A DNA stretch of 64,000 nucleotides from an uncultured bacterium (GCA_965368975.1 CBDUPA010000003.1:224001-288000), one strand, 5' to 3'; shown: positions 19,827-42,775, counted from the first letter of the stretch. Numbers and translations are program-made. Notes: generated by a model not told the origin, from the sequence alone.

Positions 19827-20573
19827 TTGCAAAAGACTGTGAAGCACGATTATCAAGCCTGGCTTCTTCCCGAGAACGTACTAGGCGCCATTCAGACACT
19901 AGCGTTAATCTTTGCTGGGATGTGGGGTATTTTTATTTTCGTGAAGTTCGAAGAGGCGGAAAGATCTCTTCAGGCGGAGTTACTGAAAAGTCAAAATTCT
20001 CAGGCAGAACTCTCTCAGCAGATCGCGTCGTTGGAACTCCTGCAGCAGGAGAATCAGGTGCGCACAATGCAAAGTGCACGGCATGCCATAGATCAGAGTA
20101 TCGAGATTCAAACCATTGAGAGTGAAGAAGAGCGGAATACCTATCTTGTGACATATGAGTATGCAGTCTACAATACGGGGGACTCAGCCATTGAAGTTAC
20201 CTATATAGTTGTTTATGCATACATCTTTGATAACTTCTTTTTGGCGCCTATGCGGGCGATGGAGGTGCCTAGATTTGGTACTGAACTAGGGTCTGGATGG
20301 GAGCCGATTCTCGATAAGGGGTATTACTATGGTCCTCACTGGAAAGAAGGAATGACCTTTGTCTCGAAGCAGGGAGGAAGAGCAGAATTTCTGAAGGGTG
20401 GCGGAGGTACCTCAGAACTTGACCCTTCAGAACGGTCTGTGGGTGATGTTCAGCTGCTGATTAGGGCTGAGCCTGGTAGTATCATCGGATTCGAAGCAGT
20501 GATCGGTATCAATGGAGGGAAGGACCCCGTTGACCGATTGCATTTGAGAGATAAGGCGCTCCTCTTGGAGTGA
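19827..20573 (+). CDS. Hypothetical membrane-anchored protein (TM + coiled coil + beta-rich domain)
   Basis: AAGGAG RBS before TTG; one N-terminal TM, Gln/Glu coiled coil; long ORF in AT-richer DNA. Confidence 0.65.
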   Translation: MQKTVKHDYQAWLLPENVLGAIQTLALIFAGMWGIFIFVKFEEAERSLQAELLKSQNSQAELSQQIASLELLQQENQVRTMQSARHAIDQSIEIQTIESEEERNTYLVTYEYAVYNTGDSAIEVTYIVVYAYIFDNFFLAPMRAMEVPRFGTELGSGWEPILDKGYYYGPHWKEGMTFVSKQGGRAEFLKGGGGTSELDPSERSVGDVQLLIRAEPGSIIGFEAVIGINGGKDPVDRLHLRDKALLLE

Positions 20574-20602
20574 GGAGATCACTGCCATTTTGAAGGGAGA
20601 AT

Positions 20603-20899
20603 GTGTTGTTAAAACCACCTTGGCGACCAGTGAAGCTGACTCTTGGGCTTGTCTTCGTGGGATTGTGTGCGGGTTGCGGAGGGAGCACACTAGAACAGGG
20701 AACGAGTTCAGGTGAAGCAGTTGAAGTGACATCAGAGTCAATTGAAGAAGCAGCGGAAGACACTGCAGATGAGGCAGTGGGCGCTGCAGATGAGGTAGAG
20801 GACGCTGCAGATGAGGCAGAGGACGCTGCAGATGAGGCAGAGGACGCCTCTACGGATGCAGAGGAAGGCACTGGAGGACCCGATCCAATAGGTAGCTGA
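20603..20899 (+). CDS. Putative small acidic lipoprotein
   Basis: Hydrophobic signal and lipobox-like CAGC, followed by AADEAED repeats. Confidence 0.5.
   Translation: MLLKPPWRPVKLTLGLVFVGLCAGCGGSTLEQGTSSGEAVEVTSESIEEAAEDTADEAVGAADEVEDAADEAEDAADEAEDASTDAEEGTGGPDPIGS
20763..20846 (+). repeat. 21-bp coding tandem repeat, four copies (ctgcagatgaggcagaggacg)
   Basis: Units start at 20763, 20784, 20805 and 20826 with few mismatches. Confidence 0.9.
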
Positions 20900-20999
20900 T
20901 GCGGACGTGCACTGACTCGAGGTTGAGCTTCAGGCTTGTGCCATTGGAATTGCTGTTCGTTCTTCGCCGAGTTGCGTGACCTGTGCATACTGAAGTCAT

Positions 21000-22508
21000 T
21001 TAGGCCGGTTCGAAGCAGGCGTGGAATCCTAGCCGCACCGGCTTCGGTAGCGGCAAGCGTGCTACTGGCCCGGCCGCGACGTCGAAGGCGTCGAACAGCA
21101 GGAAAGCACCCGTACCTGTCTCGGCGGCGAATTCTTGGATCAAGATCAGGCCTTCGTCCGTCTTCTCGGGATGCGGCAGGAACGTCGGTTCACCGCCCAG
21201 GTAGCACTTGGGCGGAGCTTGCCAGAAGCCAGCGGCGCCGCCGCTCGACTTGAGCTTGGGCGTGTCCTTCCAGCTCAGGTGCACGAGACGATCAAAGAAC
21301 TTCCGTCCCGGCTTCGCTGTGTGCGACAGGGCGAGGACCCAGAAGTCGTCATAGGGTTGTTCCAGACGCCGTGGATCGATGTGCGGGAAGTCGCACATCA
21401 GGTCGTGGCCCAGTTCTCGACGCTCGACCAGCTCACCGGCTCTGGGATCGAGTACGAAGCGCACCGGCCGTGCATGGCGGACGTCTTCGAACAGGTGATC
21501 GGGGACGCCGTACTGGTCGTAGACGGGGCGTTCGAGTTCGATCACGTCGACCACCAGGTAGGTCTTCTCTCCATCGCGACGCTCGAAGCTGTTGACCAGG
21601 TGCAGGCAGTAGCGGTCGCCCAGTTCGACCTCGCAAAGGGCGCTACCGTCGTCGCGGCGGGCGATCAGTAGCTTGCTGCCGAGCGGTTGGGTTTGACCTT
21701 CGAGCGTGGGCCGCCAAGTCAGGGCATCCATCAGCGTCGCCTGGCTGCCCATCAGCGCGTCCATGTCGAGCACGTAGGGACTCAGATAGATCACCAGGTG
21801 GTGCGGCGCCAGGGCGAAGTCGTGCACCGAGCGCGGAGCATCGAGAGGCAAGCGCTGACGGTAGATCGACGCGCCCTGGGCATCGAAACGGTAGACATGC
21901 ACGCACGGTCGGCGAGCGGCGAAAGAAACGCCGAAGTTGAACAGCTCGCCGCTCTGGCCGTCGATCTTCGGGTGCGCCGAGAAGGGGCTGATGGCGTTCA
22001 GGCGGCCGTCGAAGGTGAAGACCTCTTTGGTCTCGAGGGTCTCTGGATCCAGTTCCCAGGGTAGGCCTTGTTCGCCAAAGGCCAGCAGCGTGCCGGCTGC
22101 CGGGTAGATGCTGACGTTGAGCGGGGACTCGAGACCGATCCCGTGCTTGAGCTGGTCGTCCTCGAAGGCGGTGCCGAAGGTGCGGTACAGCGCGTGTCCG
22201 GCGGCGTCTTCGTCGCGCACCTTGGTGCCGTGGACGAAGCGGTGGGTGAAGCGGACACGATCCTGCGTTCCGTTGCCGGTACCGGCGCTGCCGCCAAAAC
22301 GCAAACGGCTGACCTGGCCGTCACCATCCAGCCAATGTCCATAGCGCTGGGTGCCACGGCGAAACCGCGCAGGGCCGTTGAGGTAGTAGTTCCCGCGCAG
22401 CCAGGACGGAATGTCTCCTTCGATCTCGGTCAACTCCAGGTCGCCTTCCCACAATTCGAGGTCGAAGGCGCGTTCGAGCAGGGGAGCGTGGTCGGCGTTG
22501 GGCATCAT
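21000..22508 (-). CDS. Carotenoid oxygenase / RPE65-family non-heme iron dioxygenase
   Basis: GDIPSWLRG.YYLNGP, HWLDGDG, four His ligands (SAHPK, VHDF, LHLVN, GFHA), DFP, GEP.F. Confidence 0.9.
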   Translation of the reverse strand: MMPNADHAPLLERAFDLELWEGDLELTEIEGDIPSWLRGNYYLNGPARFRRGTQRYGHWLDGDGQVSRLRFGGSAGTGNGTQDRVRFTHRFVHGTKVRDEDAAGHALYRTFGTAFEDDQLKHGIGLESPLNVSIYPAAGTLLAFGEQGLPWELDPETLETKEVFTFDGRLNAISPFSAHPKIDGQSGELFNFGVSFAARRPCVHVYRFDAQGASIYRQRLPLDAPRSVHDFALAPHHLVIYLSPYVLDMDALMGSQATLMDALTWRPTLEGQTQPLGSKLLIARRDDGSALCEVELGDRYCLHLVNSFERRDGEKTYLVVDVIELERPVYDQYGVPDHLFEDVRHARPVRFVLDPRAGELVERRELGHDLMCDFPHIDPRRLEQPYDDFWVLALSHTAKPGRKFFDRLVHLSWKDTPKLKSSGGAAGFWQAPPKCYLGGEPTFLPHPEKTDEGLILIQEFAAETGTGAFLLFDAFDVAAGPVARLPLPKPVRLGFHACFEPA

Positions 22509-22516
22509 CGTTCTCC

Positions 22517-24382
22517 TCAGGTGGAGCGGAAGCGGTCGAGGACGGTCGGGTCGAGTTGCCAGGCATGAGCCCGGCCATCGGCGTGGTCGACAGCCAGAGC
22601 CGCCCAGGTCTCGGGCATGAAGTCCAGCGCGTCGAGATCGAGGGATGCGACGAAGCCGGCGTCGCTGCGCAGCTCGGGTCGTTCGAGCACCACCGAGGCC
22701 ACGTGGGCGGCGAGAAAGCGGGCGAACTCTTCGAGGCTGGTGAGCTGGGCATCGAGCACCCGGCGGGCCTCATCCGCGTCGACGCCGACCTCATAGAAGG
22801 TCGTTTCGGCGCGGCGCAGCGGTGCCAGGTCCATGAAATCGAAAAAACACGGCTCCCCGCGACCGGCGCCCGGGTGTGCGCGCTCGCTCTTCCATTGGAA
22901 GAAGCCGCTGAGCAGGCGCTGGACGCCGTGGTTGGTCGGGCCCAGGCGGGCGAAGCGGCGCAGCCAGCCGAGCGCGAAGCGGCGGTCGGTGAGCAGGTCG
23001 TTGATGAAGGGGAAGACGTAGTAGGCGAAGTAGACGGTCAGCTCCCAGGTGTACTTGAGGCTGAAGGCTTCCTGGTCGCCGAGGGCGTCATAGCTGACGG
23101 TGTACGTCGGTTCGTAGGCGGCGTAGACGCCGCGCATCAACTGCTCCGAGAGCGAGCACTTGTCAGCCAGGCGCTGGCGGCCGGCTTGGTCCGTCGTGTC
23201 GGTCTCAATGGCATCGACGATCAACGTGTTGTAGACGGAGATCAGGTCACTGCCGGGACTATAGAGCGGGTCGCTGAAGCGCCCGGCCTCACCCGCCAGC
23301 GCCCAGCGTCGCGGGTGGAGGGTCTGCTCGCAGTCGTAGGAGAAGTCCTTGTAGCCACCGAAATCGACCACGTTCCGCCGCGGTAGATCGTGGGCGAAAC
23401 AGGGGAAGCGCTCGCACACCCAGGCGGTTGCCTTGTCGACGGTGAAGACGTCGCGGTAGTCGACCACCGCCTTGTCGAAGACCAGGCCGAGGCTGGTCTT
23501 GCCCTGCAGCGGGATGACCCAGAACCACAGCCCCTCGTCCATGAAGTGGTTGGTCGCTAGCCACGCAGGAAGGTGGCCTTGGTGGCGTCGCTGAGGTTTC
23601 TTGCGGATCTCGTCGCTGCTGGCGTCGGTGAGGCGATCGACGTCGACCAGACCGTCGACCCACCAGAAGAAGGCGGCGTGGTCGATCGAATTGTCTCGCG
23701 TCAGCTTTTCCTGCTTGGCCAGCAGCTTCCGGCGGCCGGTGGTGTCGACCACCCAGCCGGCGGCGACCTCGTACTCCGGTGCGTCCGTCTCGGGCCCACC
23801 TGAGTAGGTCTTCTGCGGGTCGCCGAGACGGAAACGCAGCTCATGGTCCTGGTCGGGGTCAGCCGGCGAGGAGCCGCGGTCGAGGTCGACCTGCAACTGC
23901 TGTACGCCCAGGCGAGCCGTGAAGCGTGGATTCTGCAGATTCCGCCGGAGCAGTTCGGCCTCGAAGGTATTGCGATCGAGCTGGTAGCTGGCGATGTTGG
24001 AGAACGGCCGAATGTAGGACTGGCTGTATTCCTCGAAGCGCTGGTTGCCGGCGCCGGGTGTCTTCCAGTAGAAGCGGAGGTTGTACTTCATGAAGTGGTG
24101 CAGGAAGAGATACTCTTCCAGCTCCAGGACGCGCGAGAAGTAGTAACCGGCGAGTTGCACGCTCGACTCTCCGACTTTCTGCCGCTTTTGCGGCAGCAGG
24201 TCTCGACGCTCCAACAACAGTACGCTCTTGTTGGTCTTGAGTAGCAGGTGGCGCGCGAGGCTGAGGCCGGCCAGGCCGCCACCGAGGATCACGACGTCGT
24301 AGCGCGCCGCAAGTGCCGTGCCGTCGGCGCTCGCGTTCACCTGCTCGGCAGTGAAATCCACGACGGGTTGAGGGGAGTTCAT
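22517..24382 (-). CDS. Flavin-dependent halogenase-like protein
   Basis: GGGLAG FAD motif, KVGES, FMKYNLRF (candidate catalytic Lys), WFWVIP (WxWxIP), FSDPLYSPG; ATG 24382 overlaps upstream stop. Confidence 0.8.
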   Translation of the reverse strand: MNSPQPVVDFTAEQVNASADGTALAARYDVVILGGGLAGLSLARHLLLKTNKSVLLLERRDLLPQKRQKVGESSVQLAGYYFSRVLELEEYLFLHHFMKYNLRFYWKTPGAGNQRFEEYSQSYIRPFSNIASYQLDRNTFEAELLRRNLQNPRFTARLGVQQLQVDLDRGSSPADPDQDHELRFRLGDPQKTYSGGPETDAPEYEVAAGWVVDTTGRRKLLAKQEKLTRDNSIDHAAFFWWVDGLVDVDRLTDASSDEIRKKPQRRHQGHLPAWLATNHFMDEGLWFWVIPLQGKTSLGLVFDKAVVDYRDVFTVDKATAWVCERFPCFAHDLPRRNVVDFGGYKDFSYDCEQTLHPRRWALAGEAGRFSDPLYSPGSDLISVYNTLIVDAIETDTTDQAGRQRLADKCSLSEQLMRGVYAAYEPTYTVSYDALGDQEAFSLKYTWELTVYFAYYVFPFINDLLTDRRFALGWLRRFARLGPTNHGVQRLLSGFFQWKSERAHPGAGRGEPCFFDFMDLAPLRRAETTFYEVGVDADEARRVLDAQLTSLEEFARFLAAHVASVVLERPELRSDAGFVASLDLDALDFMPETWAALAVDHADGRAHAWQLDPTVLDRFRST

Positions 24383-25659
24383 GATGGACCTCGAGTTGCG
24401 GACGACGTCTCCGGCGAAGCCTGGCTCTCTGCAGCAGACAGCTCTTCCGCCGCGGATAGTGGCCGGTTGCGGCCGTAGGTCTCGTGCGCGTCGACGAGTT
24501 CCGAGCTGGCGATGGCACCACCCATGGACAGCTCCCCCGCCAGCGCCATGGCGACCGCGATTTCGGCGAATTTGCGTGCCTTGCCACTGCCGACGCAGTC
24601 GAGCATGCGCAGGCACTCTTGGCTGGTACCGAGCGCGGTGCCGCCGCCGACCGTGGCGATGGTGAGCGCGGGGAGGGTGACGCTGGCGTAGAGGTCACCG
24701 TCGTCGGTCAGCTCGAACACCGTGATGCCGACCGCCGCGTTGGCGATGTTGGCGACGTCCTGTCCTGTGGCGAGAAACAGCGCCGTCAGACCGTTGGCCA
24801 AGTGTCCGTTGTAGCCCAGGGCAGCCGTCTGCAAGTGCCCGATCACCGTGTGCTGCCACATGCGCACCAAGGCCTCGGGGCTTGCGTGCAGAAGGCTACG
24901 GCAGATATCCGCCGGGATGCGAGCCCCGGCGACGGCGCGCTTTCCCTTGCCTCCGGCGAACAGAGAGCCGGCAGCACGTTTCTCGGCGCTGTAGCCACTG
25001 AAGATGTAGAACTCGGGTGCGTCCAGATGGTCGCGCAGCCAGGCGCACACCGCCTCGGTGGCTTTCACCGCCATGTTCATGCCCTGCGCATCGCCGGTAG
25101 AGAACACCAGGTTGAGAATCAGCTTGCGGCCCACGGGCTGCAGCTCGATGCGTAGCAGGGCACCGTGCTGGGTGGTGGTGGCGGCGGCGGCGCGCAGTTG
25201 CTCGAGGTGCGGTGGTAAGCGCTGGGCGAAGGCGTGAGCCCGCATGGCGGTGTCGAACAGGAAGACGGGAGAGACGCGATTCTCGTCGCTGTAGAGGCGC
25301 GCTTCGGCACCGCCAGCCCGTGTCAAGGCGACCATGCCGCGCTCGTAGGAGCGCACCAGGGTACCTTCGCTGGTCGCCATGGGGACGTAGAAGACACCGT
25401 CGGCATGCTCGCCGCGCACGTGCAACGGACCGGCGACGCCGAGTGGCGTTTGTACCGAGCCGATCGGGTTCTCGATGTTGCCGCGCAGGCTCTCGCCCGC
25501 CAGCGAGCAGCGCCCGACGTGCTCCAGGCTGGCGCCTGTCTGCGCCTCGACCCACTGGCGTCGACGCTCGATGTCGGCGTCGCTGTAGCCCTGCTTGCGC
25601 AGGCGTGGGACCAACCGCGGTGCGCGCTGAGTGGGCTCTTCTCTCGTGTCGCTCGTCAT
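24379..25659 (-). CDS. Class I HMG-CoA reductase-like protein
   Basis: ENPIG, PMATSEG, DAQGMNM, GQDVAN, TVGGGT, C-terminal AH. Confidence 0.88.
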   Translation of the reverse strand: MTSDTREEPTQRAPRLVPRLRKQGYSDADIERRRQWVEAQTGASLEHVGRCSLAGESLRGNIENPIGSVQTPLGVAGPLHVRGEHADGVFYVPMATSEGTLVRSYERGMVALTRAGGAEARLYSDENRVSPVFLFDTAMRAHAFAQRLPPHLEQLRAAAATTTQHGALLRIELQPVGRKLILNLVFSTGDAQGMNMAVKATEAVCAWLRDHLDAPEFYIFSGYSAEKRAAGSLFAGGKGKRAVAGARIPADICRSLLHASPEALVRMWQHTVIGHLQTAALGYNGHLANGLTALFLATGQDVANIANAAVGITVFELTDDGDLYASVTLPALTIATVGGGTALGTSQECLRMLDCVGSGKARKFAEIAVAMALAGELSMGGAIASSELVDAHETYGRNRPLSAAEELSAAESQASPETSSATRGPS

Positions 25660-27044
25660 GATGCCTCGTCCTCACGCTGCAGAATCAGCGCACATGCGTT
25701 GCCGTCTAGGCCGAGAGCCGTGACCAAGCCTCGGCGCACGGACGTGGAGCCGGCCGGACGCTGCCGCAGGGGTTGGCAGGTCGCCTGGACCGGCAGTGGG
25801 AAGGCGTCGGGAAGCTGCTCGAGTCCATGAACGCCCGGTAGCTCTCCCTGCGCCAACGCGGTGATCAGCGCTACCGTTTGCAGGGCTGGACCGGCGCCCA
25901 AGGCTTCGCCGAGCATCGACTTGACGGCGGTCACCGGCGGTAGGGACGTGCAGGAGCGGAAGGCGAGGGCCAGCCCGGCGGCTTCGTGCTGATCGCCTGC
26001 CGGACTGCCGTTGGCCGAGCAGCTGACAGCGTCGATGTCGTCGATCTGCACTTGTGCGTCGTCGAGGGCGATGGCGATAGCACGAGCGACGGCGTCGGCG
26101 GCCGACTCGGCGTCCCGCCCGCGCGACGGATCGAAGGCGTTCCCGTGACCGACCAGTTCAGCGTGGATCTGGGCGTCGCGCTCGCGTGCCGCGGCCAGAG
26201 GTTCGAGCATCAGCAGCGCCGCTCCTTCGCCGAGTGCGAAGCCGTCCCGGCCGGTGTCGAAGGGTACCGGTCGCTGCGTCTGCGTTGCTGCTCTCTCGGC
26301 GCCTGGACCGTTCGAGGCTGATCCGCTGAGATCCGGCCCACCCGTCATGCGTCCGGTGCGCAGAAAGCCGAAGAAGGAAGGCAGGCTCAACTCCTCGGCG
26401 CCGCCTGCGAGCACGGGGCCACTGCGGCCGGAGCGCACCATTTCGGTAGCGTAGGCCAAGGCTTGCAGGCCGGACGTGCTACCGGCGCACAGCGTCGAGT
26501 TGAGGCCGCGCAGGTCGTGCCAGATGGCCGCCTGGCCGGCGGCGGCGTTGATCACGGTATTGGCGAAGTCGAGGGGCTTGGCATACTGCGGCCCGAGTTC
26601 CAACGCCCGTTTGTCGAACTGCACGATCGTGCGCACGCTGCCGAACATGGTGCCGAGGACCAGGCCGACTTCGTCCTCGGCGCGGCGCTCTGGAGTCCAG
26701 CCCGCTTGCTCGAGCGCCAGGTGTGCCGCCACCGTCGTCAGGCGTCCGGTTCGGTCGAGTGGGCGGAAGTTACGCTTGCCCAGGTAGTCGAAAGGAGAGA
26801 AGCCTTCGATCGGGGCGCCCAGTCGACCTTCGATCGCTGGGCGCAGGGCCTCCGGTAGTTCGCCGTCGTCGGGCATCTCGTGCAGCGGACGCAGCGCGCT
26901 GTTGCCGCGGCACAACGCTGCGTGGAGGGTCTCGGCGGCGTCGCCCAGCGGGCTCAGCAGGCCGATTCCGGTCACCGCCACGCGTGCGGCAGTCGGGTGG
27001 TGGACGGTGCCCGTGGTGTGCCCGTGTCGTGTGCCTTTTGACAT
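25656..27044 (-). CDS. Ketosynthase-like protein lacking catalytic residues (chain-length-factor-like)
   Basis: KS fold (VTGIG, PFD..RDG..LGEGA) but AGSTSG at the Cys loop, SANGS for HGTGT and LGE for LGH. Confidence 0.85.
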   Translation of the reverse strand: MSKGTRHGHTTGTVHHPTAARVAVTGIGLLSPLGDAAETLHAALCRGNSALRPLHEMPDDGELPEALRPAIEGRLGAPIEGFSPFDYLGKRNFRPLDRTGRLTTVAAHLALEQAGWTPERRAEDEVGLVLGTMFGSVRTIVQFDKRALELGPQYAKPLDFANTVINAAAGQAAIWHDLRGLNSTLCAGSTSGLQALAYATEMVRSGRSGPVLAGGAEELSLPSFFGFLRTGRMTGGPDLSGSASNGPGAERAATQTQRPVPFDTGRDGFALGEGAALLMLEPLAAARERDAQIHAELVGHGNAFDPSRGRDAESAADAVARAIAIALDDAQVQIDDIDAVSCSANGSPAGDQHEAAGLALAFRSCTSLPPVTAVKSMLGEALGAGPALQTVALITALAQGELPGVHGLEQLPDAFPLPVQATCQPLRQRPAGSTSVRRGLVTALGLDGNACALILQREDEAS

Positions 27045-27055
27045 CGTGGGTCCCC

Positions 27056-28294
27056 TCAGGCGGTCTTCCGAAAGAGTACGGAGGCGTTGTTGCCGCCGAA
27101 GGCGTAGGCGTTGTTCATCGCCACCTGGACGGTCACGTCGCGGGCCTCGTTGGGTACGCAGTCGAGCGGCATACAGTCTGGATCCTCCTCCTCGAAGTTC
27201 ATCGTCGGCGGGACCCGATCTTCATATGTCGCCAGGGCACAGACCGCAGCCTCGATCGCCGACGCGGCGCCCATGGTGTGCCCGAGCATGGACTTGATCG
27301 AACTCATCGGCGTCCTGCCCGCAGCGTCTCCGAAGACACGCCGTACCGCTGCACTTTCCAGGCGGTCGTTGGTCGGTGTGCCGGTGCCGTGGGCGCTGAT
27401 GTAGTCCACTTGCTCAGGACGAAGGCCGCATTCGGCGAGTGCCTTGCTCATCGCCCGTGCCGCCCCTCGACCCTCCGGGTGCGCTCCGGTCATGTGATGC
27501 GCGTCACAGGACAGGCCGTAGCCAGCAACCTCACTGTAAATCGTGGCGTCCCGTGCTACGGCACGCTCCCAGGGCTCGAGCACCAGCATGGCGGCTCCTT
27601 CACCTGGAATCATGCCCTTACGGTTGCGGTCGAAGGGTTGAACGCGCTCGGGGGCGATGGCTCCGACGCGCCAGAAGCCGGTGTAGGTGATGCGTGAGAA
27701 CGAGTCCGCACCACCTGCCAGCATGATGTCGGCGCGGCCGCTGCGCAGCACGTCGAAGGCGTGGGCGATGGCGTAGTTGCCGGCCGCGCAGGCTGCCGGG
27801 ATCATGGTGTTGACGCCCGAGAAGCCGAACTCCGCGGCCACGTAGCCCGGCACCACGTGGCAGGGGTAGAGGTTCATGAACTCCGGTCCCAACTCGGGTA
27901 GGGCCTGCGCAGCTTGGCGGTCATTGTAGTGCTCGACCTGCAGCGGTTCGCCGGAGGTCGTGCCGAGTGCCACGCCGATACGTTCGCTGCGGACGCCGTC
28001 ACCGAGATCGAGCCCGGCATCCTCGAGCGCTTGTCGCGTCGCCGCAATCGCCATCTGGGATGTGCGACCAATGTCGGCCGGATCGAGGTTGCGGACGTGC
28101 TGCGCGGCATCGAAGTCGCTGACTTCGGCGCCGCGGTCAGCGGTAAAGTTCGTGGTATCGAAGGAACGAACTGCGTGAATGCCGGAATCTCCGGCGAGCA
28201 AACGTTGCCATACCAACTGCCGACCGCTTCCCAGAGGGGTGACGAGGCCGATGCCGGTGATAGCGACGCGAGAGCAAGCGCTGCGCGTGGCCAT
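27056..28294 (-). CDS. Beta-ketoacyl-ACP synthase (FabF-like / type II PKS KS)
   Basis: Intact Cys-His-His triad: AACAAG, HGTGT, KSMLGHTMGA. Confidence 0.93.
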   Translation of the reverse strand: MATRSACSRVAITGIGLVTPLGSGRQLVWQRLLAGDSGIHAVRSFDTTNFTADRGAEVSDFDAAQHVRNLDPADIGRTSQMAIAATRQALEDAGLDLGDGVRSERIGVALGTTSGEPLQVEHYNDRQAAQALPELGPEFMNLYPCHVVPGYVAAEFGFSGVNTMIPAACAAGNYAIAHAFDVLRSGRADIMLAGGADSFSRITYTGFWRVGAIAPERVQPFDRNRKGMIPGEGAAMLVLEPWERAVARDATIYSEVAGYGLSCDAHHMTGAHPEGRGAARAMSKALAECGLRPEQVDYISAHGTGTPTNDRLESAAVRRVFGDAAGRTPMSSIKSMLGHTMGAASAIEAAVCALATYEDRVPPTMNFEEEDPDCMPLDCVPNEARDVTVQVAMNNAYAFGGNNASVLFRKTA

Positions 28295-28310
28295 GAGAAG
28301 CGAACTCGTG

Positions 28311-28583
28311 CTACGCGGCTTGCGTGTCGTCGAGGTGCTGCCGGCGAAGGGTTCCTTGCACCAGGTCGACGGCTTCTTGGACGTTCTTCAAACTCTGGAG
28401 CCGCTCTTCCGGCAAGCCGAGCTTGAACTCATAGTCGACGTCGACGGCGATCTCCAGAAGGGACAGGGAGTCGAGGTCCAGTTCGTCCTGGAACGAGGCG
28501 TTGTCCCCGATCTCTTCCGCCGGGATACCGGTGACGTTGGTGATGATCTGCTTGATTCTGCCGCGAAGTTCAGAGGCTTCCAT
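28311..28583 (-). CDS. Acyl carrier protein
   Basis: 90 aa acidic protein with LDSL phosphopantetheine site; GGAGGA RBS. Confidence 0.92.
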   Translation of the reverse strand: MEASELRGRIKQIITNVTGIPAEEIGDNASFQDELDLDSLSLLEIAVDVDYEFKLGLPEERLQSLKNVQEAVDLVQGTLRRQHLDDTQAA

Positions 28584-28669: not shown

Positions 28670-28741
28670 ACAGTAAGTCCAACTGACGATATCTCAACCG
28701 ATTGTCGTTCGACAAGGGTCTCCAGCTGCCGTTCGACAAGG
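28670..28741 (-). promoter_or_regulatory. Putative promoter of the ACP-KS operon with upstream operator-like repeats
   Basis: Minus-strand TTGAGA(28697-28692)-N16-TACTGT(28675-28670); inverted repeat TTGTCG-TT-CGACAA at 28702-28715; CGTTCGACAAGG repeated at 28706 and 28730. Confidence 0.5.
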
Positions 28742-28755
28742 AGCAGGGTCTACGC

Positions 28756-29481
28756 TCAAATGCTATCAGAAGTCGTCAGCCAGCCGCGTTCCTGCGCGAG
28801 GTGCACGGCCTCGTGGCGGTTCTCGACCTCCAGCTTGTCGAGGATGTGGTGGACGTGATTCTTCACCGTATGCACCGACAAGTGCAGTTCCTGAGCGATG
28901 CGTTTGTTGGAGGCACCGTGCGCGATCAGCTGCAGGACCTCCATCTCGCGCGCTGTCAGCGCCAGGGCCTCCGCCCTCAGCCGTTTGCGATGACGTGCTT
29001 CCAGCTGTTCAAGGTGCTTGAGCAGAGCGCGGGTGATTGCCGGCGAGCTGACGGCCTCACCGGCGGCGAGCCGGCGCACGGCGTCCGCAAGTTCCACCAG
29101 CGACGTGTCGCGCGACAGGTAGCCGCGCACACCGGCACGTACGCTCGGAAGTAGCAGCGTGTCGACATCGAACGGACCCAGCAGCAGCAAGCGCGCTCCA
29201 TCCAGCTCGCGTGCCAGGTCGCGGATCAACGACAAGTCCTCGGCGTCGGAGCGGGCCGGCGCAATCAGCACCACGTCCGGTTGCTGCTCGCGACCCAGTT
29301 CGAGAGCCTCTGCGGCGTCGCCGGTGGCACCAGCGACCTCGAGATCCTCGCCATCCAAGGCCAGGATCAGGCAGTCACGCAGCACCTTGTGCGGTGTGAC
29401 CACCAGCAGGCGGATTTTCGGTCTCAACGGTACGTCTCCCTGCAGCTTCGCTCCCACCAGCGAACCTGCTCTGCGTTCCAC
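28756..29481 (-). CDS. NarL/LuxR-family regulator with atypical receiver domain
   Basis: LTAREMEVL..G.SNK.IA..L.LS.HTVKNHV HTH; DVVLIA in place of DVVLLD. Confidence 0.88.
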   Translation of the reverse strand: MERRAGSLVGAKLQGDVPLRPKIRLLVVTPHKVLRDCLILALDGEDLEVAGATGDAAEALELGREQQPDVVLIAPARSDAEDLSLIRDLARELDGARLLLLGPFDVDTLLLPSVRAGVRGYLSRDTSLVELADAVRRLAAGEAVSSPAITRALLKHLEQLEARHRKRLRAEALALTAREMEVLQLIAHGASNKRIAQELHLSVHTVKNHVHHILDKLEVENRHEAVHLAQERGWLTTSDSI

Positions 29482-29602: not shown

Positions 29603-30331
29603 TCACCCGTCGAGTTCCTCATGGCGCTGCGTCTGCGACGATCGCGGTGCAGTCTCCTCTGCCCTTGAAGCTGGTGCCTCTGAAGCGGCTGCCTCTGAGG
29701 GGGGTGGCAGCCAACCACGGCGCTGTGCTTCGTCGACGGCTTGGGCGCGTCTGCGAGCGTTGAGTTTGTCCAGGATGTTGTGCACGTGGTTCTTGATCGT
29801 GTGGATCGACAGGCCGAGGCGCTCGGCCACGGCCTGATTGCCTAGCCCTTCCTGGATCAGCGTCAGGACATCCAGTTCGCGCGCCGTCACTCGTGGTTGC
29901 TGGTCCGAGGTGGTGGCCTGACGGTAGCGGGCTTGCAGCCGTCGGAGCAGAGCTGGCAACTCCTGTGGTGGGCAGCCTGCCTTGCCGCGCAGCGCTGGCC
30001 GCAGGATGTCGAGCAGCTCCCGGAAGCTGCATTCGCGCGACACGTAGGCGGGGGTCTTGTCCGCCAGTTCTGGCGGCACCATCAGCAACAGGCGGCAGTG
30101 ACTGGGCAGAGTACGCGCTACCTGGTTCAGTCGCAGCAGTTCCGTGGGGCGCCGTCCGTCGGTCTCTATGATCACCAGGGCTGGAGCCTCGGGCAGCAAC
30201 GGGGCAGTGTCGATGCGTAGGTCTGCCTGCACGACGGCGTGGTCTGGGAAGGCTCGCTCCAGGCGCGCGGCGAGGCCTTCACGCCAGACACCGAAATTAC
30301 TGAGCACGAGAAGTGTCGGACTGTCGAGCAT
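29603..30331 (-). CDS. LuxR-family regulator with degenerate receiver domain
   Basis: VTARELDVL...TIKNHVHNILDKL; start may be 30331 or 30367. Confidence 0.82.
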   Translation of the reverse strand: MLDSPTLLVLSNFGVWREGLAARLERAFPDHAVVQADLRIDTAPLLPEAPALVIIETDGRRPTELLRLNQVARTLPSHCRLLLMVPPELADKTPAYVSRECSFRELLDILRPALRGKAGCPPQELPALLRRLQARYRQATTSDQQPRVTARELDVLTLIQEGLGNQAVAERLGLSIHTIKNHVHNILDKLNARRRAQAVDEAQRRGWLPPPSEAAASEAPASRAEETAPRSSQTQRHEELDG

Positions 30332-30452
30332 GGTCTGGACCCGTTGGGAACGGCCCCTCGGTTGCACAAGCCGTCTCAGCTGCCGAAGAAGAGGAGCCGA
30401 AGAAGAAATGGAGAGCTGCGCGGCGTCTACCGTGCTTCAGGAGGCCGCGTCT

Positions 30453-31157
30453 TCAGACTGGAGAGCGGAGCGTCGAGCGCCACGGAGACTCGCCTTCCAA
30501 GATGCCGCTTTCGTAGGCACAGCGAATGGCATCGCGCCGACGGCGAACCTGGAACTTCGTGAGGATGTTGTGCACGTGGTTCTTGATCGTGGGCACGGTG
30601 ATTTCCAGGCGAGACGCGATTTCTTTGTTGCGCAGGCCACCCGCCATGTGCTGCAGCACTTGCAGTTCGCGCCGCGTCATGGCCACTCTCGCCGGTGCGC
30701 CGGACTCTGGCTCGGCAGTGAGGAGGCAGCGTAGCCGTTGGAGGGCGGCATCGAGCACTGGTTGCCCGAGATTGGGTTGCCGGCGGTGAACTTGACGGAT
30801 GTTGCCCAGGAGCTCCGGGATGGAGGCCTGTTTCAGACTGACGCTGGCAGCACCGGCTGCCAGGAGCTGTACGACCTGCGCTACGTTGTCGGCATCCAGA
30901 CCGAAGGGCAGAATCTCGGCGGCGGAGCCGACGGTGCGCAACTGCCGGGTGATGTCCAAAGCACGGCGCGTCCCGAGTCCGGTGTCGAGCAGGACCACAT
31001 CCGCCTGGCTGCGTTGCAGACGCTGCTGCGCCTCGCCATCGAAATCCTGACTCTCGCCGGCTAGCTGCAACTCGGCCTGGTCCTCGAGACAGTCACCCAG
31101 GACTTCTCGCATCAGGCGGTGGCGGCAGATCAGGAAGACGCGAATGGGGTCGTTCAT
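30453..31157 (-). CDS. NarL/LuxR-family regulator
   Basis: DVVLLD retained but N-terminal acidic pair replaced (LICRH); MTRRELQVL...TIKNHVHNIL. Confidence 0.86.
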   Translation of the reverse strand: MNDPIRVFLICRHRLMREVLGDCLEDQAELQLAGESQDFDGEAQQRLQRSQADVVLLDTGLGTRRALDITRQLRTVGSAAEILPFGLDADNVAQVVQLLAAGAASVSLKQASIPELLGNIRQVHRRQPNLGQPVLDAALQRLRCLLTAEPESGAPARVAMTRRELQVLQHMAGGLRNKEIASRLEITVPTIKNHVHNILTKFQVRRRRDAIRCAYESGILEGESPWRSTLRSPV

Positions 31158-31352
31158 GGCCAAGAAGGGGGTCCGACTGCACAAAGTTTTGCGCTACACG
31201 ACCCTTTGTCGATACTCATCAGATGTAAGATTCAATCGTTCGTGGGATTTCGAACGCTCCTGTGTTGCGATCATCGGTAACCCTACGTTTCAGGTCGAGC
31301 CGCGGCAATGAGTCGCAGGTCCTAAAAAGGATGCTGGCTCCTTAATGGTCGA

Positions 31353-38505: not shown

Positions 38506-40236
38506 TCAGGTGGATGTGCTGCAAGGAGCGGTGGAGAGAGACTTGGCGTCGGCGGTCAGGCGGCGCGAGGCGTCTGGCGTCACCAACAAGATCAGTTGAT
38601 CGTGAGCGTGCAGCCGCGTCGGTCCGCGCGGGATCAGCATCGTATCGCCGTGCAACACGGCGACCACGGTTGCTCCCTCGACGCTACCGATGCTCTCGGC
38701 GACGGTCGAGCCATCGAGCGCGGAGTGCGGCTGCACATCGAGGCTCACTAACATGCCGATTCCTTCGGCGCTCACCGGCACCGGCTCGCCGTAGCGTAGC
38801 AAGTTGACCAGCCGTGGCAGCGTCAACTCACCAGCGTCGACGCGGCCGCCTTCCAGCACCTCGAGTGCCCTACGGACGAACACGCCGCGATGGGCGGGGG
38901 AGTCCTCGCGGTCTTCGACCTGAGATTCGTAGAGCGTGGGGTAGCGCCGACCGGTGGTCAAGGTCCGCTGGATCAAGAAAGCGAGGACGTTGGCCAGCAT
39001 GGCGGGGACAATCAAACCATAGCCGCCGGTCATCTCGGCGACCAGGATGAGCGTCGAGATCGGTGTGCGCGCGGCACCGGCGAAGACTGCTGCCATGCCG
39101 ACGACGATCAGCGCCGGTGCCGATGGCTCGCCCGGCAACCAAGGCCCCAGCCCTCCGGCGACTACCGCGCCGAGCATGGCGCCCAGGGTGATGGTCGGGG
39201 CGAAGACGCCGCCGGCACCTCCGGAGCCGATGGTCAGCACCATCGCCGGTCCCTTGGCCAGGAGGAGCAGCAGCAGCAAGGTCAACGGCAGTTGCCCGCT
39301 CAACGCCAGTTCGACCCAGCCGTAGCCCGTGCCCAGGAGCTCGGGCGCGGCCAGCGCCAGCAGTCCGACCAGCAGTCCCCCGAGGGCTGGGCGCAGCGAG
39401 CGCGGCAGCGGGACGCGCCTGAAGAGGTCTCTACCGTGGTAGAAGAGCGCTGGTAACAGGGCGCCCAAGGCGCCTGCCAGCAGGCCCAGGATGGCGAAGC
39501 CGAGCAGGTCCTCCGGTGCGAAGCCGAGGCCAGGCGGTACCGCGAAGATCGGCTCCCAACCGGCGAAGAGACCGTGCACGGCGTAGGCAGTGACCGCCGA
39601 GATGATGGTGTAGATCAAGGCTTCGGATTCGAAGACCATGCCGGCATAGAGGATCTCGACGGCGAAGATCGCCATTCCCAAGGGGGCCTGGAACATCGCC
39701 GCGAGCCCGGCCGACATGCCGGCGAGCAGGAGGATGCGGCGTTCCTCGCCGCGCAGCTTGAGGATGCGAGCGAGCATGGCGCCGACACCGACCGCGATCT
39801 GAGCTGTCGGACCCTCGCGCCCGGCGACGCCACCCGAGCCGAGCGTCAAGGCCGAGGCAATGGCTTTGACCACTGGTGTGCGGCTGCGCACGTCGGCGCC
39901 GCGCTGGTGGTAGGCGGCGACCGCGGCGTCGGTGCCGTGCCCCTCGGCCTCGGGCGCGAAGCGGAACACGAGCCAGCCCGAGAGCAGGCCACCCAGGGTC
40001 GTCACAACGGGCAACCACCAGCGCTGCGGCCAGCCGGGCACCACGTGTTCCGGAGTCAGCTCACCGGCGCCCGGTGGACGGTAGCCGCCGATACCCTCGA
40101 GAAGCAGCAGCTGCGCCCACTCGACCAACTGGTCGAAGAGCAAGGCCGCCAGCGCCCCCGCGACGCCGATCAAGCAGCAATAGCCGACCATGCGGTACGT
40201 CGGTGCGAACAGCGGCTTGGTGACGCGGTGGTCCAT
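38506..40236 (-). CDS. CLC-family chloride channel/antiporter with C-terminal TrkA-C domain
   Basis: APEAEGHGTD, GREGP, GGVFAP, EMTGGY; TAGGGT box 7 nt before ATG 40236. Confidence 0.9.
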   Translation of the reverse strand: MDHRVTKPLFAPTYRMVGYCCLIGVAGALAALLFDQLVEWAQLLLLEGIGGYRPPGAGELTPEHVVPGWPQRWWLPVVTTLGGLLSGWLVFRFAPEAEGHGTDAAVAAYHQRGADVRSRTPVVKAIASALTLGSGGVAGREGPTAQIAVGVGAMLARILKLRGEERRILLLAGMSAGLAAMFQAPLGMAIFAVEILYAGMVFESEALIYTIISAVTAYAVHGLFAGWEPIFAVPPGLGFAPEDLLGFAILGLLAGALGALLPALFYHGRDLFRRVPLPRSLRPALGGLLVGLLALAAPELLGTGYGWVELALSGQLPLTLLLLLLLAKGPAMVLTIGSGGAGGVFAPTITLGAMLGAVVAGGLGPWLPGEPSAPALIVVGMAAVFAGAARTPISTLILVAEMTGGYGLIVPAMLANVLAFLIQRTLTTGRRYPTLYESQVEDREDSPAHRGVFVRRALEVLEGGRVDAGELTLPRLVNLLRYGEPVPVSAEGIGMLVSLDVQPHSALDGSTVAESIGSVEGATVVAVLHGDTMLIPRGPTRLHAHDQLILLVTPDASRRLTADAKSLSTAPCSTST

Positions 40237-40311
40237 TCCCCGAACCCTAGCACTGCGCGCGGCCTGGCACCATGTAGGGCGACGCTGCGCGCCAGTGATG
40301 GACAGTCCGCG

Positions 40312-41595
40312 ATGGACACTCCACGATTGACACAGGACGGACAGTGGAGGACACTCGATTCTGTGAAGAACACGAATGCCGAAGCCGACTTCCAAGCTCT
40401 GCAGACCAGCTTCTGTGCTCATCTGGAGAGTGAGTTGCGCAGCCGTCTGGCGGAGAAGCGCCATCTCACCAGTGGCTATGCCCCGCAGGCACTGCCCTTG
40501 CTCGACGCGCTCGAAGACCTGGTTCTGGCACGCAGCAAGCGATTGCGGCCGGCACTGGTGTACTTCAGCTACAAGGCGTGCGGCGGGGAGAGTGAGGCCG
40601 CGGTGCTGCCGCTGGCGCTAGCAGCCGAGCTTCTGCACACCTACTTGCTGATCCACGACGACATCATGGACCGGGCACCGACCCGGCGGGGCCGACCCAG
40701 CGCGCACGCCCGCTTCGCCGCCGAGCACCGCCGCCATGGCTGGCGCGGAGACGCCGAACACTACGGCACGTCGATGGCGGTCTTGGTTGGTGATCTGGCA
40801 CACACCTGGGCCGACGAACTGGTCACGGGGGTGCAGGTCCCGGCGGTTGCCGCCCAGGCCAAGGAATCGCGGCGTGGCCGTGCCCTCGCGCGTCGGTCTT
40901 TGGTGGGCCGGTCCCGGGCGGGGAAGTCAAAGGAGTCGTCGGCGTCCGGCCTGGTGGCTCGACGGCATGCCTTGCACCACGTCTACTACCAGATGAGTCA
41001 CGAGGTGATCGATGGCCAGTATCTGGAGATGCATCTCGGGCTCGAACTGGGCGGCGAAGGCACAGCCAAGGACGATGTCCAGCTGCCGGACCAGGCGCTC
41101 CTGAATCGCGTCTTGCGTCTCAAGTCGGGCATGTACAGCGTCGAACGACCGATCGAGCTCGGGGCCTTGCTGGCGGGTGCTGGGGAGCATCGGCTATCGG
41201 CTCTGGCGCGCTATGGTCGGGCGGTGGGAGAGGCCTTCCAGTTGCAGGACGACGTTCTTGGCCTCTACGGCGATCCGGGAGCCACCGGCAAGCCAGTGGG
41301 GGGCGACCTGCGCGAGGGCAAGTACACCTTCTTGATCCACCACGCGTTGCAGCGCCTGCCGGCGGCGGATGGTCAGCGCTTGTTGCAGGCACTGGGGTGT
41401 GCCGACCTGGCGCCGGCACAGGCCGAAGAACTCGCGCAGCTGGTGCGGACTTGCGGTGGACTGGCAGCGGTCGAAGAGATGATCGACGATCGCTGTCGGC
41501 GGGCCGCGGAAGCGCTCGATGGGCTCGATTTCACGCCTGCCGGCAAGGCTTTTTTCCACGGTCTCATCGCCTACGTCGCCGGCCGAGATCACTAG
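40312..41595 (+). CDS. Polyprenyl diphosphate synthase (IdsA/GGPPS-like)
   Basis: KRLRP, IHDDIMD..TRRG, GQYLE, FQLQDD, GKPVGGDLREGK; start uncertain (40312 or 40363). Confidence 0.88.
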   Translation: MDTPRLTQDGQWRTLDSVKNTNAEADFQALQTSFCAHLESELRSRLAEKRHLTSGYAPQALPLLDALEDLVLARSKRLRPALVYFSYKACGGESEAAVLPLALAAELLHTYLLIHDDIMDRAPTRRGRPSAHARFAAEHRRHGWRGDAEHYGTSMAVLVGDLAHTWADELVTGVQVPAVAAQAKESRRGRALARRSLVGRSRAGKSKESSASGLVARRHALHHVYYQMSHEVIDGQYLEMHLGLELGGEGTAKDDVQLPDQALLNRVLRLKSGMYSVERPIELGALLAGAGEHRLSALARYGRAVGEAFQLQDDVLGLYGDPGATGKPVGGDLREGKYTFLIHHALQRLPAADGQRLLQALGCADLAPAQAEELAQLVRTCGGLAAVEEMIDDRCRRAAEALDGLDFTPAGKAFFHGLIAYVAGRDH

Positions 41596-41608
41596 GGCGG
41601 AGCGCGCC

Positions 41609-42775
41609 GTGCTCGACCGCGTGGAAGTTTCGGCCCCTGGCAAGCTGATCCTGATGGGAGAGCACGCTGTGGTCTACGGTCAGCCGGCACTGGTGGCCGC
41701 AGTTGACTTGCGGCTTCAGGTCCGTCTGCGCCGCGCTCCGGAGGTCCGTGGCTTGCGCCTGTCCTTGCCCGACCTCGATCCTCCGGGCGATGCTGCTGGC
41801 CTCGAGGCTGCCGTGCCGTGGAGGCAAATCGACACCGAGACGCGGCAGGCCGCGGAGCGCTGGCAACGTTGGTACGACGCGGCGGGCGCGCTGCCGTTCG
41901 ACGCGGCAGGCGGCGTGCGTGCGGTACGCCTGGCGGTCGGAGAGGCACGCGCCGCGGCTGAACGGCTGGGGCTCCGGGTACCCGAGGACGTCGGCGCCGA
42001 GCTGGAAATCCGGTCCGAGCTTCCGGTGGGGGCCGGTTTTGGTAGCTCGGCGGCGATGGCGGTGGCGATTGTCCTGGCGTGGTGGCGGTGGTGGGGCATC
42101 GAGGTCGAGGCTCGCGACCAGTCGGACTTGCGCGCCGAAGTGCAGCGCACGGCGTTGGAGATCGAACGGCGACAGCATGGCACGCCATCGGGCGTCGATA
42201 CCGCGGCGGTCTTGCACGGTGGTCTGCTCTGGGCACGGCGGCGCCAGGATGGCAGCGTCGAGATGGAGCTTCTGGAGCCAGCCCACGATGGGCTGCGCGA
42301 ATTGTGCGTCTTCCATAGCGGCACGCCTGCCGAGACCACCGGCGAAGTCGTGGCGGCGGTGCGCGCGCGACGCCGGCAGCGCCCGACACAGGTGGACGCG
42401 GCTCTCGACGAACTCGGAAGCGCGGCGCATGCGCTGCGAGCGTACCTGACGCAGCAGGATGCCCCGCGCGCCGACCTGCTGGCGGCCGTCCGGCACGCGG
42501 AAGCCCGGCTCGAGACACTCGGTGTGGTGCCCGAGCCGGTGCGTCGGCGGTTCCGGCAGCTGGAGGCCGCGGGCGGTGCCGGCAAGATCTCGGGGGCGGG
42601 TGCGCTCAGCGGTGAGGCTGCGGGTTGCGTCCTGGCCGTGCCCCCCTCAGAGGCTGTCGCAGGGACTCGACCACCGGCAACGAGCGAACCTCTGCCGGGG
42701 CTGGACGGGCTGAGTCGTCTCTACGTGGGCCTGGGCGGCACAGGGGCGCTTTCGGCAACGGCTACTTTGGGCTAA
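41609..42775 (+). CDS. mvk: Mevalonate kinase (GHMP family)
   Basis: SAPGKLILMGEHAVVYG, PVGAGFGSSAA, HGTPSGVD, KISGAG. Confidence 0.85.
   Translation: MLDRVEVSAPGKLILMGEHAVVYGQPALVAAVDLRLQVRLRRAPEVRGLRLSLPDLDPPGDAAGLEAAVPWRQIDTETRQAAERWQRWYDAAGALPFDAAGGVRAVRLAVGEARAAAERLGLRVPEDVGAELEIRSELPVGAGFGSSAAMAVAIVLAWWRWWGIEVEARDQSDLRAEVQRTALEIERRQHGTPSGVDTAAVLHGGLLWARRRQDGSVEMELLEPAHDGLRELCVFHSGTPAETTGEVVAAVRARRRQRPTQVDAALDELGSAAHALRAYLTQQDAPRADLLAAVRHAEARLETLGVVPEPVRRRFRQLEAAGGAGKISGAGALSGEAAGCVLAVPPSEAVAGTRPPATSEPLPGLDGLSRLYVGLGGTGALSATATLG

Follow-up and report, generated by a model that had tools for sequence, protein, structure and literature searches.

An acidobacterial operon joining a ladderane-type ketosynthase pair to an HMG-CoA reductase paralogue, a flavin halogenase and a carotenoid oxygenase: a candidate specialised lipid cluster

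The ladderane lipids of anammox bacteria are suspected to be products of a gene cluster, Cluster I, which in Kuenenia (kuste/KustE3603-3608) encodes the acyl carrier protein (ACP) amxACP, amxFabZ, amxFabF2, amxFabFmut, a phytoene-dehydrogenase homologue and a B12 radical SAM protein (10.64898/2026.05.19.726425; Rattray 2009, PMC2649909; Javidpour 2016, PMC4790861). A 2026 preprint on this putative ladderane cluster reports structures of the amxFabF2/amxFabFmut heterodimer of Brocadia fulgida and of its complex with ACP; the heterodimer decarboxylates malonyl-ACP, forms acetoacetyl-ACP and prefers C6-C8 probes, and, according to the preprint, none of the ladderane producers is genetically accessible (10.64898/2026.05.19.726425). 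In two other reports, the function of "ladderane-type" clusters outside anammox bacteria is called unknown (PMC7298704, PMC8692599). Here we analyze a 64,000-nucleotide stretch of DNA from an uncultured acidobacterium (GCA_965368975.1, CBDUPA010000003.1:224001-288000; hereafter the window, with positions counted from its first letter), whose minus strand carries at 21000-28583 a six-gene operon with a chain-building core that is related to the suspected ladderane genes of anammox bacteria.

The operon opens with an ACP gene (28311-28583; 90 aa; Pfam PP-binding, 43.5 bits), which is followed on the same minus strand by genes for a FabF-type ketosynthase (KS) (27056-28294; 412 aa; Pfam ketoacyl-synt N and C, 143.8 and 125.4 bits), a KS partner protein (25656-27044; 462 aa; ketoacyl-synt N and C, 109.7 and 59.7 bits), a paralogue with the HMG-CoA reductase (HMGR) fold (24379-25659; 426 aa; HMG-CoA_red, 346.9 bits), a flavin-dependent halogenase (22517-24382; 621 aa; Trp_halogenase, 42 bits against a cut-off of 21), and a non-haem iron dioxygenase of the RPE65/carotenoid cleavage oxygenase (CCO) family (21000-22508; 502 aa; RPE65 PF03055, 307.5 bits). 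A preliminary description of the locus had named six codirectional genes with these identities, and all six Pfam assignments agree with it. The operon-like packing it reported was likewise recovered: as read from the sequence, the ACP-KS, KS-partner, and halogenase-CCO junctions are gaps of 16, 11, and 8 nt, and the partner-HMGR and HMGR-halogenase junctions are both ATGA overlaps of 4 nt (-4). GC content at third codon positions (GC3) is 77-86% in all six genes, and a GGGAGG ribosome-binding site lies 5' of the ACP start codon.

The combination of an active KS, a Cys-less partner and an ACP, another element of the preliminary description, is borne out by the catalytic residues. The KS has the Cys/His/His set, and the motifs that carry it, PAACAAG, AHGTGT, and GHTMGA, are conserved throughout the 11 cluster KS sequences. 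In the partner, Ser stands at the Cys position (Glu in 11 relatives) and Glu replaces the second His, as it does in all 12 sequences, and we predict that the partner is a catalytically dead, chain-length-factor (CLF)-like protein resembling amxFabFmut. The best Protein Data Bank (PDB) chain for the KS was 9s5h_B (E 3.4e-141), with weaker matches to the ishigamide KS (6kxd; 3.3e-95), FabF (~1e-89) and, last, the actinorhodin KS (3.5e-68); the best chain for the partner was 9s5h_C (7e-60). Entry 9s5i additionally holds an ACP. We take 9s5h and 9s5i to be the structures of the B. fulgida preprint, in whose text the code does not appear; the identification is supported by 9s5h_C, in which the Val at the Cys position fits the preprint's description (10.64898/2026.05.19.726425). 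A full-text literature search for "9S5H" returned nothing relevant. The E-values to two chains of one PDB entry suggest that the KS and its partner may form a physical heterodimer that would decarboxylate and condense.

The gene order of a dedicated ACP, then a FabF-type KS that is active, then a partner that is dead is common to Cluster I and the window cluster. They differ in host, an acidobacterium here and an anammox planctomycete for Cluster I, and at the partner's Cys position, which is Ser or Glu in the window cluster and its relatives and Val or Thr in anammox bacteria. The FabZ and B12 radical SAM genes of Cluster I occur neither in the window operon nor in its flanks. The phytoene-dehydrogenase homologue is also absent from the operon; a CrtI-family gene is present in the clusters of relatives and, in trans, in this genome. 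What the window cluster adds is the HMGR-fold reductase, the flavin halogenase, the CCO, and an acyltransferase.

Relatives of the KS at 43-53% identity were found in 22 of 401 Planctomycetota genomes. Four low-GC Planctomycetota loci have the order ACP, KS, KS-mut, CrtI-like, and the open reading frames of locus L029 follow the full Cluster I order (ACP-FabZ-KS-KSmut-CrtI-like-B12 radical SAM). Identities between the window and the Planctomycetota loci are 52-53% for the KS and 32-33% for the partner, and the CrtI-like proteins of Planctomycetota and Acidobacteriota are 29-33% identical (E 1e-70 to 1e-85). A KS/CLF phylogeny had been suggested in the preliminary description, and in a maximum-likelihood tree of 55 KS-fold sequences, with outgroups from this genome alone and heterogeneous amino acid composition, KS and partner each group with planctomycete sequences. 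The acidobacterial and planctomycete KSs form one clade (support 100/99); the partners of both phyla form another (99/98), which includes the long-branched partner of an aryl-polyene-like cluster on contig C5 of this genome; and housekeeping FabF falls outside both. Because the KS clade and the partner clade each span the two phyla, the pair was inherited or transferred as a unit.

The locus had originally been called type II polyketide synthase (PKS)-like, a label that fits its KS, partner, and ACP but not if the aromatic kind is meant, since the closest solved relatives of the KS pair are anammox FabF2/FabFmut, then the ishigamide KS, and then FabF. An aromatic (minimal) type II PKS was considered and rejected: aromatic CLFs carry Gln at the Cys position, which in the partner is Ser or Glu, and the actinorhodin KS is a weaker match than FabF. 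No cyclase or aromatase gene was detected with Pfam in the window operon or its flanks. Ishigamide Iga11/Iga12 (PDB 6kxd) resembles the window system in its discrete ACP and KS/CLF-like heterodimer, and Iga11 ranks second, far behind 9s5h_B, among the solved structures related to the KS. Highly reducing type II PKS clusters such as that for ishigamide encode their own ketoreductase (KR) and dehydratase (DH), whereas no KR, DH, or enoylreductase (ER) gene is found in the six-gene operon. The window system shares its KS/CLF pair, ACP, PlsC-type acyltransferase, and flavin halogenase with aryl-polyene/xanthomonadin clusters, whose product is a membrane-anchored halogenated polyene. Compared with these, the window cluster has no aryl-activating ligase and has an HMGR-fold reductase and a CCO instead. 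A separate aryl-polyene/xanthomonadin-like cluster is present in this genome (L018; C5:122000-134000), with genes for an AMP-ligase, a polysaccharide deacetylase, a PlsC acyltransferase, a flavin halogenase (29% identical), a KS with partner, and a GT2 protein. We describe the window operon as a type II fatty acid synthase (FAS)/PKS-like lipid cluster in which known enzyme families occur in a combination for which we found no description; in line with the preliminary description, full-text literature searches with little coverage of subscription journals returned no paper on this combination.

The closest described counterpart of the fourth gene product is FcrA, a class-I-HMGR-derived enzyme of the HMGR fold that reduces fatty acyl-CoA to alcohol and is teamed with WS/DGAT to make wax esters (Grossi et al. 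2025, ISME J, PMC11948995). FcrA keeps the catalytic tetrad of HMGR and is marked by three exchanges: Ser684 to Glu, the HMG-binding Lys (printed as Lys795 in the source and taken here as Lys735) to a small residue, and Leu862 to Trp; it often has an N-terminal lipid-binding domain, and ACP fusions occur among bacterial FcrAs (PMC11948995). The window enzyme had been described as a class I HMGR, which holds for its fold, its Pfam family, and its homology to class I but not for its identity as a canonical HMGR. It keeps the catalytic Glu, Lys, Asp, and His (the ENP Glu, the loop Lys, the GQD Asp, and the C-terminal His), the Asn of HxxN, and most of the polar HMG-pocket residues. Its score with the NCBIfam model TIGR00533 is 315.6, under the cut-off of 441.8. 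Lys735, reported to be universal in HMGR, is replaced by Gln/His in the window and by H, R, T, or S in relatives, and the DKK of the cis-loop is EK[RQH] in 10 of 10 cluster paralogues. In view of the score, the lost lysine, and the altered loop, a canonical class I HMGR was rejected and the protein is regarded as a diverged paralogue.

The remaining FcrA positions set the window enzyme apart from FcrA as well. At the Ser684 position it has Ser (aligned with the archaeal HMGR Ser) or, in a gap-free alignment, Phe, with Glu in neither; at the Leu862 position, the window enzyme and two further paralogues from the clusters have Leu, 7 of 10 have Phe, and Trp is absent throughout. FcrA and the window enzyme thus share the HMGR fold, the Glu/Lys/Asp/His tetrad, the loss of the HMG-binding lysine, and a genomic association with an ester-forming acyltransferase, and differ in that FcrA has Glu684 and Trp862 where the window enzyme has Ser and Leu and no N-terminal Lad domain. 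This genome encodes three HMGR-fold proteins, on contigs C16 and C3 and in the window. The first, a class II HMGR (C16:104499-105779; TIGR00532 377.9, above the cut-off of 259.95), lies among polyprenyl synthase, MenD, MenF, and UbiE/MenG genes and is presumably the mevalonate-pathway enzyme. The second, an FcrA-type class-I HMGR homologue of 518 aa (C3:309893-311449), has the Glu, Asn, and Trp signatures and a PF25653 N-domain and adjoins an ABC1 kinase. Since a separate class II HMGR exists elsewhere in the genome, we do not regard the window paralogue as a mevalonate enzyme; with Ser, Gln/His, and Leu at the three positions and EK[RQH] in the loop, it is neither a canonical HMGR nor a canonical FcrA and is best read as an NADPH thioester reductase dedicated to the cluster product. 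Of 8000 sequence clusters scored, at least 2284 fall within its family at E <= 1e-90; the named members are annotated as HMG-CoA reductase, and their sources include Acidobacteriota, Latescibacteria, and Zixibacteria metagenome-assembled genomes (MAGs). The FcrA-type gene on C3 stands together with an ABC1/UbiB-type kinase gene and a weak acyltransferase match (L017; C3:307376-311449), about 20 kb past the right end of the window, and this group is probably a genuine FcrA-type fatty-alcohol system.

All 10 orthologues of the halogenase retain the GxGxxG and WxWxIP motifs and the Lys of [FY]xKYNLRF, and that Lys aligns with the lysine of the PIKRGG stretch of CndH, which we take to be the catalytic, chloramine-forming Lys76. 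All 11 of its PDB matches are halogenases, the best being CndH (3e1t; 2.2e-9), and its C-terminal third has no domain assignment. With the signature motifs intact, halogenating activity is predicted. In the CCO, a match to the seven-bladed propeller family, the four iron-binding His align with those of ACO. A lignostilbene dioxygenase subtype was rejected: the phenol-binding Tyr and Lys positions of LsdA (presumably Tyr101 and Lys134) are Phe and Gly, and the NF053778 score is 152.5 against a cut-off of 800.

A scan of a genome collection with the partner protein returned 13 loci, 10 of which hold the cluster with its gene order preserved, all from Acidobacteriota/Thermoanaerobaculia MAGs. Across these ten loci (L001-L010), identities to the window are 48-57% for the ACP, the first cluster gene, 63-71% for the KS, 40-54% for the partner, 54-64% for the HMGR, 48-52% for the halogenase, and 37-57% for the CCO. 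Twenty relatives' loci carry the ACP-KS-partner trio; the HMGR gene directly follows the partner in 11 of them, and a halogenase-CCO pair lies within the locus in 11. A CrtI-family (Amino_oxidase) gene of ~500 aa comes after the HMGR in 8 of the first 10 loci (L001-L004 and L007-L010) and also in L033, L035, and L038, and a PlsC-type acyltransferase with a long N-terminal extension is present in L002, L009, and L010. All of these parts are contiguous in L035, an eight-gene array of ACP-KS-partner-HMGR-CrtI-like-acyltransferase-halogenase-CCO. Locus L009 (766-15729) has two tandem ACP-KS-partner-HMGR sets, one with a halogenase-CCO tail and the other with a tail of CrtI-like, acyltransferase, and ABC1 kinase genes, which suggests two branch pathways off one core.

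Marker scans of 401 genomes of the phylum, this genome and 400 others, returned a partner-KS orthologue in 10 of the 400 and a partial one in genome G180 (>= 38% identity, E <= 1.8e-53), a halogenase orthologue in 11 (E <= 1e-80), and the HMGR paralogue in 11 (>= 53% identity). All three markers were found in 8 genomes (9 with G180) and any marker in only 13. Matches to the partner KS extended to 87 genomes; the other 75 reach only ~30-34% identity and are read as FabF-level, and one of the 401 genomes, G024, has a FabF-level match alone (31% identity). Fourteen further loci were drawn from marker-positive genomes. They include a second lineage (L044-L047) with HMGR, CrtI-like, TetR-like, acyltransferase, ABC1 kinase, two ArsA-like, and halogenase genes, in which the ACP-KS-partner trio often lies at a separate locus and to which a short-chain dehydrogenase/reductase (SDR) in L046 and two SRPBCC "polyketide cyclase" proteins in both L046 and L047 are added. 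A SnoaL-like cyclase is present in L003. The gene set whose co-occurrence the preliminary description had proposed to look for therefore recurs, both among the relatives' loci and in the 400-genome scans, and we conclude that the six-gene operon is real and conserved.

Some features of these loci concern their surroundings or assembly. FG-GAP/ASPIC-UnbV propeller and TPR proteins repeatedly flank the trio (L003, L004, L007, L008, L010, L033, and L039), and one TPR protein of L003 has a weak cytochrome c554-like match; the window cluster has no adjoining genes of either kind. The KS of L005 (656-1860) and the halogenase of L006 (11271-12972) are split between frames, as a result of MAG assembly errors or because they are pseudogenes.

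The system extends beyond the window operon: in relatives it also includes genes for a CrtI-like flavoenzyme and an acyltransferase, both of which are unlinked here. Beside the CrtI-like gene (C8:188450-190003), which is 64% identical to the L001 copy, lie genes for a TetR protein and an RND pump. On contig C12, the orthologue of the acyltransferase gene (50% identity; PlsC/DAGAT-like) is next to an ABC1 kinase gene and a second ACP gene (60% identical to the window ACP), which is preceded by a gene for a small GerE regulator. When second-lineage proteins were used as queries, the ABC1 kinase match in this genome adjoined the acyltransferase gene, and the SDR, ArsA-like, and PAP2 proteins matched unlinked genes. 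No counterpart in this genome was found for the START-type cyclases, an ABC1-like protein, TetR, DinB, the SnoaL-like cyclase, or four Pfam-less proteins. A phytoene/squalene synthase was not found in this genome, which is 99.3% complete; the CrtI-like protein and the CCO therefore act on a noncarotenoid substrate, for which the cluster's own chain is the obvious candidate.

In light of these data, we propose with moderate confidence that the six genes form the central part of a pathway dispersed over the genome, which would make a specialised lipid in the form of a tailored alcohol or aldehyde. The KS/partner pair would prime by decarboxylating malonyl-ACP and extend an acyl chain on the dedicated ACP, with the partner setting chain length. 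Because the operon has no genes for reductive steps, the housekeeping FabG, FabZ, and FabI are invoked to supply these. The HMGR-fold enzyme would convert the acyl thioester, ACP- or CoA-bound, to an aldehyde or alcohol, as FcrA does with fatty acyl-CoA; the unlinked CrtI-like flavoenzyme would introduce C=C bonds; and the halogenase would chlorinate or brominate an activated position, probably while the chain is still carrier bound. The CCO would split a C=C bond to aldehydes, and the unlinked PlsC/DAGAT-like acyltransferase would esterify the alcohol or anchor the chain in a lipid. The halogenated, reductively released, and oxidatively cleaved lipid or polyene envisaged in the preliminary description is compatible with this scheme.

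Several points weigh against a pathway of this kind. The operon's want of KR, DH, and ER genes makes the use of the housekeeping FAS an assumption, and an unreduced beta-keto product is equally allowed. Two of the three FcrA signatures are missing from the reductase (Ser for Glu and Leu for Trp), and a short, polar substrate is therefore conceivable in place of a fatty chain. As a rule, flavin halogenases act on electron-rich carbons, of which a saturated chain offers none. The make-up of the cluster also varies, with the HMGR gene gone from some loci (L005, L006, and L034 have the halogenase and CCO without it) and the CCO gone from the second lineage. As to the anammox parallel, the CrtI-like protein of anammox bacteria failed to replace CrtI (Javidpour 2016, PMC4790861), and the function of Cluster I, according to the preprint, is unproven even there (10.64898/2026.05.19.726425).

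A doubtful but serious alternative is a small diffusible signal of beta-keto or aromatic polyketide type. The KS/partner and ACP would then make an unreduced (poly)-beta-ketoacyl-ACP, with the halogenase chlorinating an activated methylene or a derived phenol, the HMGR-fold enzyme releasing the product reductively, the CCO trimming it, and the neighboring LuxR-type proteins sensing it. The lack of KR, DH, and ER genes in the operon favors such a pathway, and its chemistry suits flavin halogenases; the PDB relatives of the window halogenase are all halogenases, and several of them (CndH, PltA, Bmp2-type enzymes, and CmlS) use substrates that are carrier bound or activated. Upstream of the operon are three LuxR-family genes and a paired repeat, LuxR homologues are upstream in L001 and L002, and cyclase-like genes occur in some relatives (SnoaL-like in L003, two SRPBCC proteins in L046 and L047). 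These cyclase-like genes, however, have no counterpart in this genome. The KS is also closer to FAS-like and highly reducing KSs than to the aromatic PKS KS, the partner has Ser or Glu and not the Gln that aromatic CLFs carry, the CCO is without the phenol-binding Tyr/Lys of stilbene-cleaving enzymes, and the PlsC/DAGAT-like acyltransferase, ABC1 kinases, and CrtI-like associates point to a lipid. That the product may be a signal molecule, an idea already present in the preliminary description, is suggested by the neighboring LuxR-type regulators, which are kept in 2 of the first 10 relatives' loci. The related anammox heterodimer yielded only acetoacetyl-ACP in vitro, which again suits an unreduced product (10.64898/2026.05.19.726425).

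The preferred reading, a dispersed lipid pathway, can be extended to a more far-reaching proposal that we regard as speculative and rather unlikely. Acidobacteriota and anammox bacteria would both use the ACP, FabF2-like KS, dead partner, and CrtI-like enzyme as a module for the same kind of unusual unsaturated acyl-ACP. In Acidobacteriota this intermediate would be diverted by an HMGR-fold enzyme of a third functional class, distinct from HMGR and from FcrA and with acyl-ACP as a possible substrate, and the halogenase and CCO would turn it into a halogenated lipid alcohol or aldehyde, maybe sensed by the adjacent LuxR-type regulators.

HMGR, CrtI, and CCO are families classically linked to isoprenoids, and the isoprenoid background of this genome was considered with a further, very improbable explanation in mind: that the window paralogue is a true HMGR feeding the mevalonate pathway, the CrtI-like protein and CCO act on carotenoid-type polyenes, and the KS and ACP give acetoacetyl units. 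The organism appears to use the mevalonate pathway, which, with the retention of most polar HMG-pocket residues in the window paralogue, speaks for this view. IspH was not found in this genome, a mevalonate diphosphate decarboxylase gene (C13:68537-69493) scores above its cut-off, and the plus strand of the window encodes a polyprenyl synthase and a mevalonate-kinase-like protein at 39574-42775 (the latter at 41519-42775; 149 bits, just under the cut-off). Three models for HMG-CoA synthase gave no match above cut-offs in the genome, the best weak match being FabH; by its look, this is nevertheless a mevalonate-pathway acidobacterium. The lack of that synthase, and of a phytoene/squalene synthase, counts against an isoprenoid role for the operon, as do the class II HMGR above its curated cut-off in a prenyl/menaquinone context and the loss of Lys735 and alteration of DKK in 10 of 10 paralogues. 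Moreover, the paralogue occurs in only 11 of the 400 other genomes, 9 of which (10 with the partial G180 match) also have the partner-KS orthologue. Least credible of all is that the six genes are neighbors without a common pathway, for although the HMGR, CCO, CrtI-like, and acyltransferase genes are each missing from some relatives' loci, two start/stop overlaps and gaps of 8-16 nt tie the genes together, their order recurs in 11 of 20 loci, and the three markers occur together in 8 to 9 genomes when any of them is present in only 13 of 400.

A related module in another phylum, with other tailoring genes, offers an independent way to learn the product of the KS pair and the CrtI-like enzyme, and if the intermediate is indeed shared, nonanammox bacteria would serve as a surrogate for the first steps of ladderane biosynthesis. 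The residue pattern of the reductase, between HMGR and FcrA, may point to a wider chemistry of the HMGR fold; should its relatives be something other than HMGRs, their present annotation misleads those who deduce a mevalonate pathway from it. The product is possibly an undescribed compound class. Acidobacteriota are an abundant phylum whose chemistry is little known, and we know of no halogenated, oxidatively cleaved lipid from them, no search aimed at it having been made.

The operon is flanked on one side by polyphosphate kinase and adenylosuccinate synthetase genes and on the other by three LuxR/GerE regulator genes on the minus strand (28756-29481, 29603-30367, and 30453-31184), each with a Pfam GerE domain and the third also with a receiver domain. 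It is possible that these genes regulate the operon; in 2 of the first 10 relatives' loci (L001 and L002), a homologue of the first (~40% identity) directly precedes the ACP gene. Between this regulator gene and the ACP gene is a paired repeat (28703-28741, minus strand), in which CCTTGTCGAACGRCA occurs twice without mismatch at a spacing of 24 nt, 120-158 nt 5' of the ACP start. Allowing up to two mismatches, CCTTGTCGAACGRCA has five matches in the window against 0.35 expected, the exact ones being the two 5' of the ACP gene, and the exact pair is the only one in this genome. No conservation of the pair was seen 5' of the relatives' clusters. We regard it as a candidate regulator-binding site. 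A consensus scan for promoters and terminators yielded no more sites than shuffled sequence.

At the other end of the operon, an open reading frame at 20509-20988, 11 nt 3' of the CCO gene, was considered as a seventh gene and rejected: its GC3 is 41%, it encodes a Ser/Ala-rich repeat, and it has no Pfam match. It is probably noncoding or a remnant. The tandem Ser/Ala-coding repeat within it lies at about 20760-20880, and GC content drops to 57.5% in 20001-22000, just 3' of the CCO gene. Elsewhere in the window, 8-12 kb from the halogenase operon, the minus strand carries at 36090-40464 genes for a bacterial acyl-CoA oxidase (ACOX; 796 aa) and for a CLC chloride channel with a TrkA-C domain, which might bear on lipid turnover or halide supply. 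A FeeM-like N-acyl amino acid synthase is encoded at 52825-53490 on the minus strand, and the 1014-aa product of a plus-strand gene at 58228-61272 fuses an APH-type kinase to an M23 peptidase and a class-III aminotransferase.

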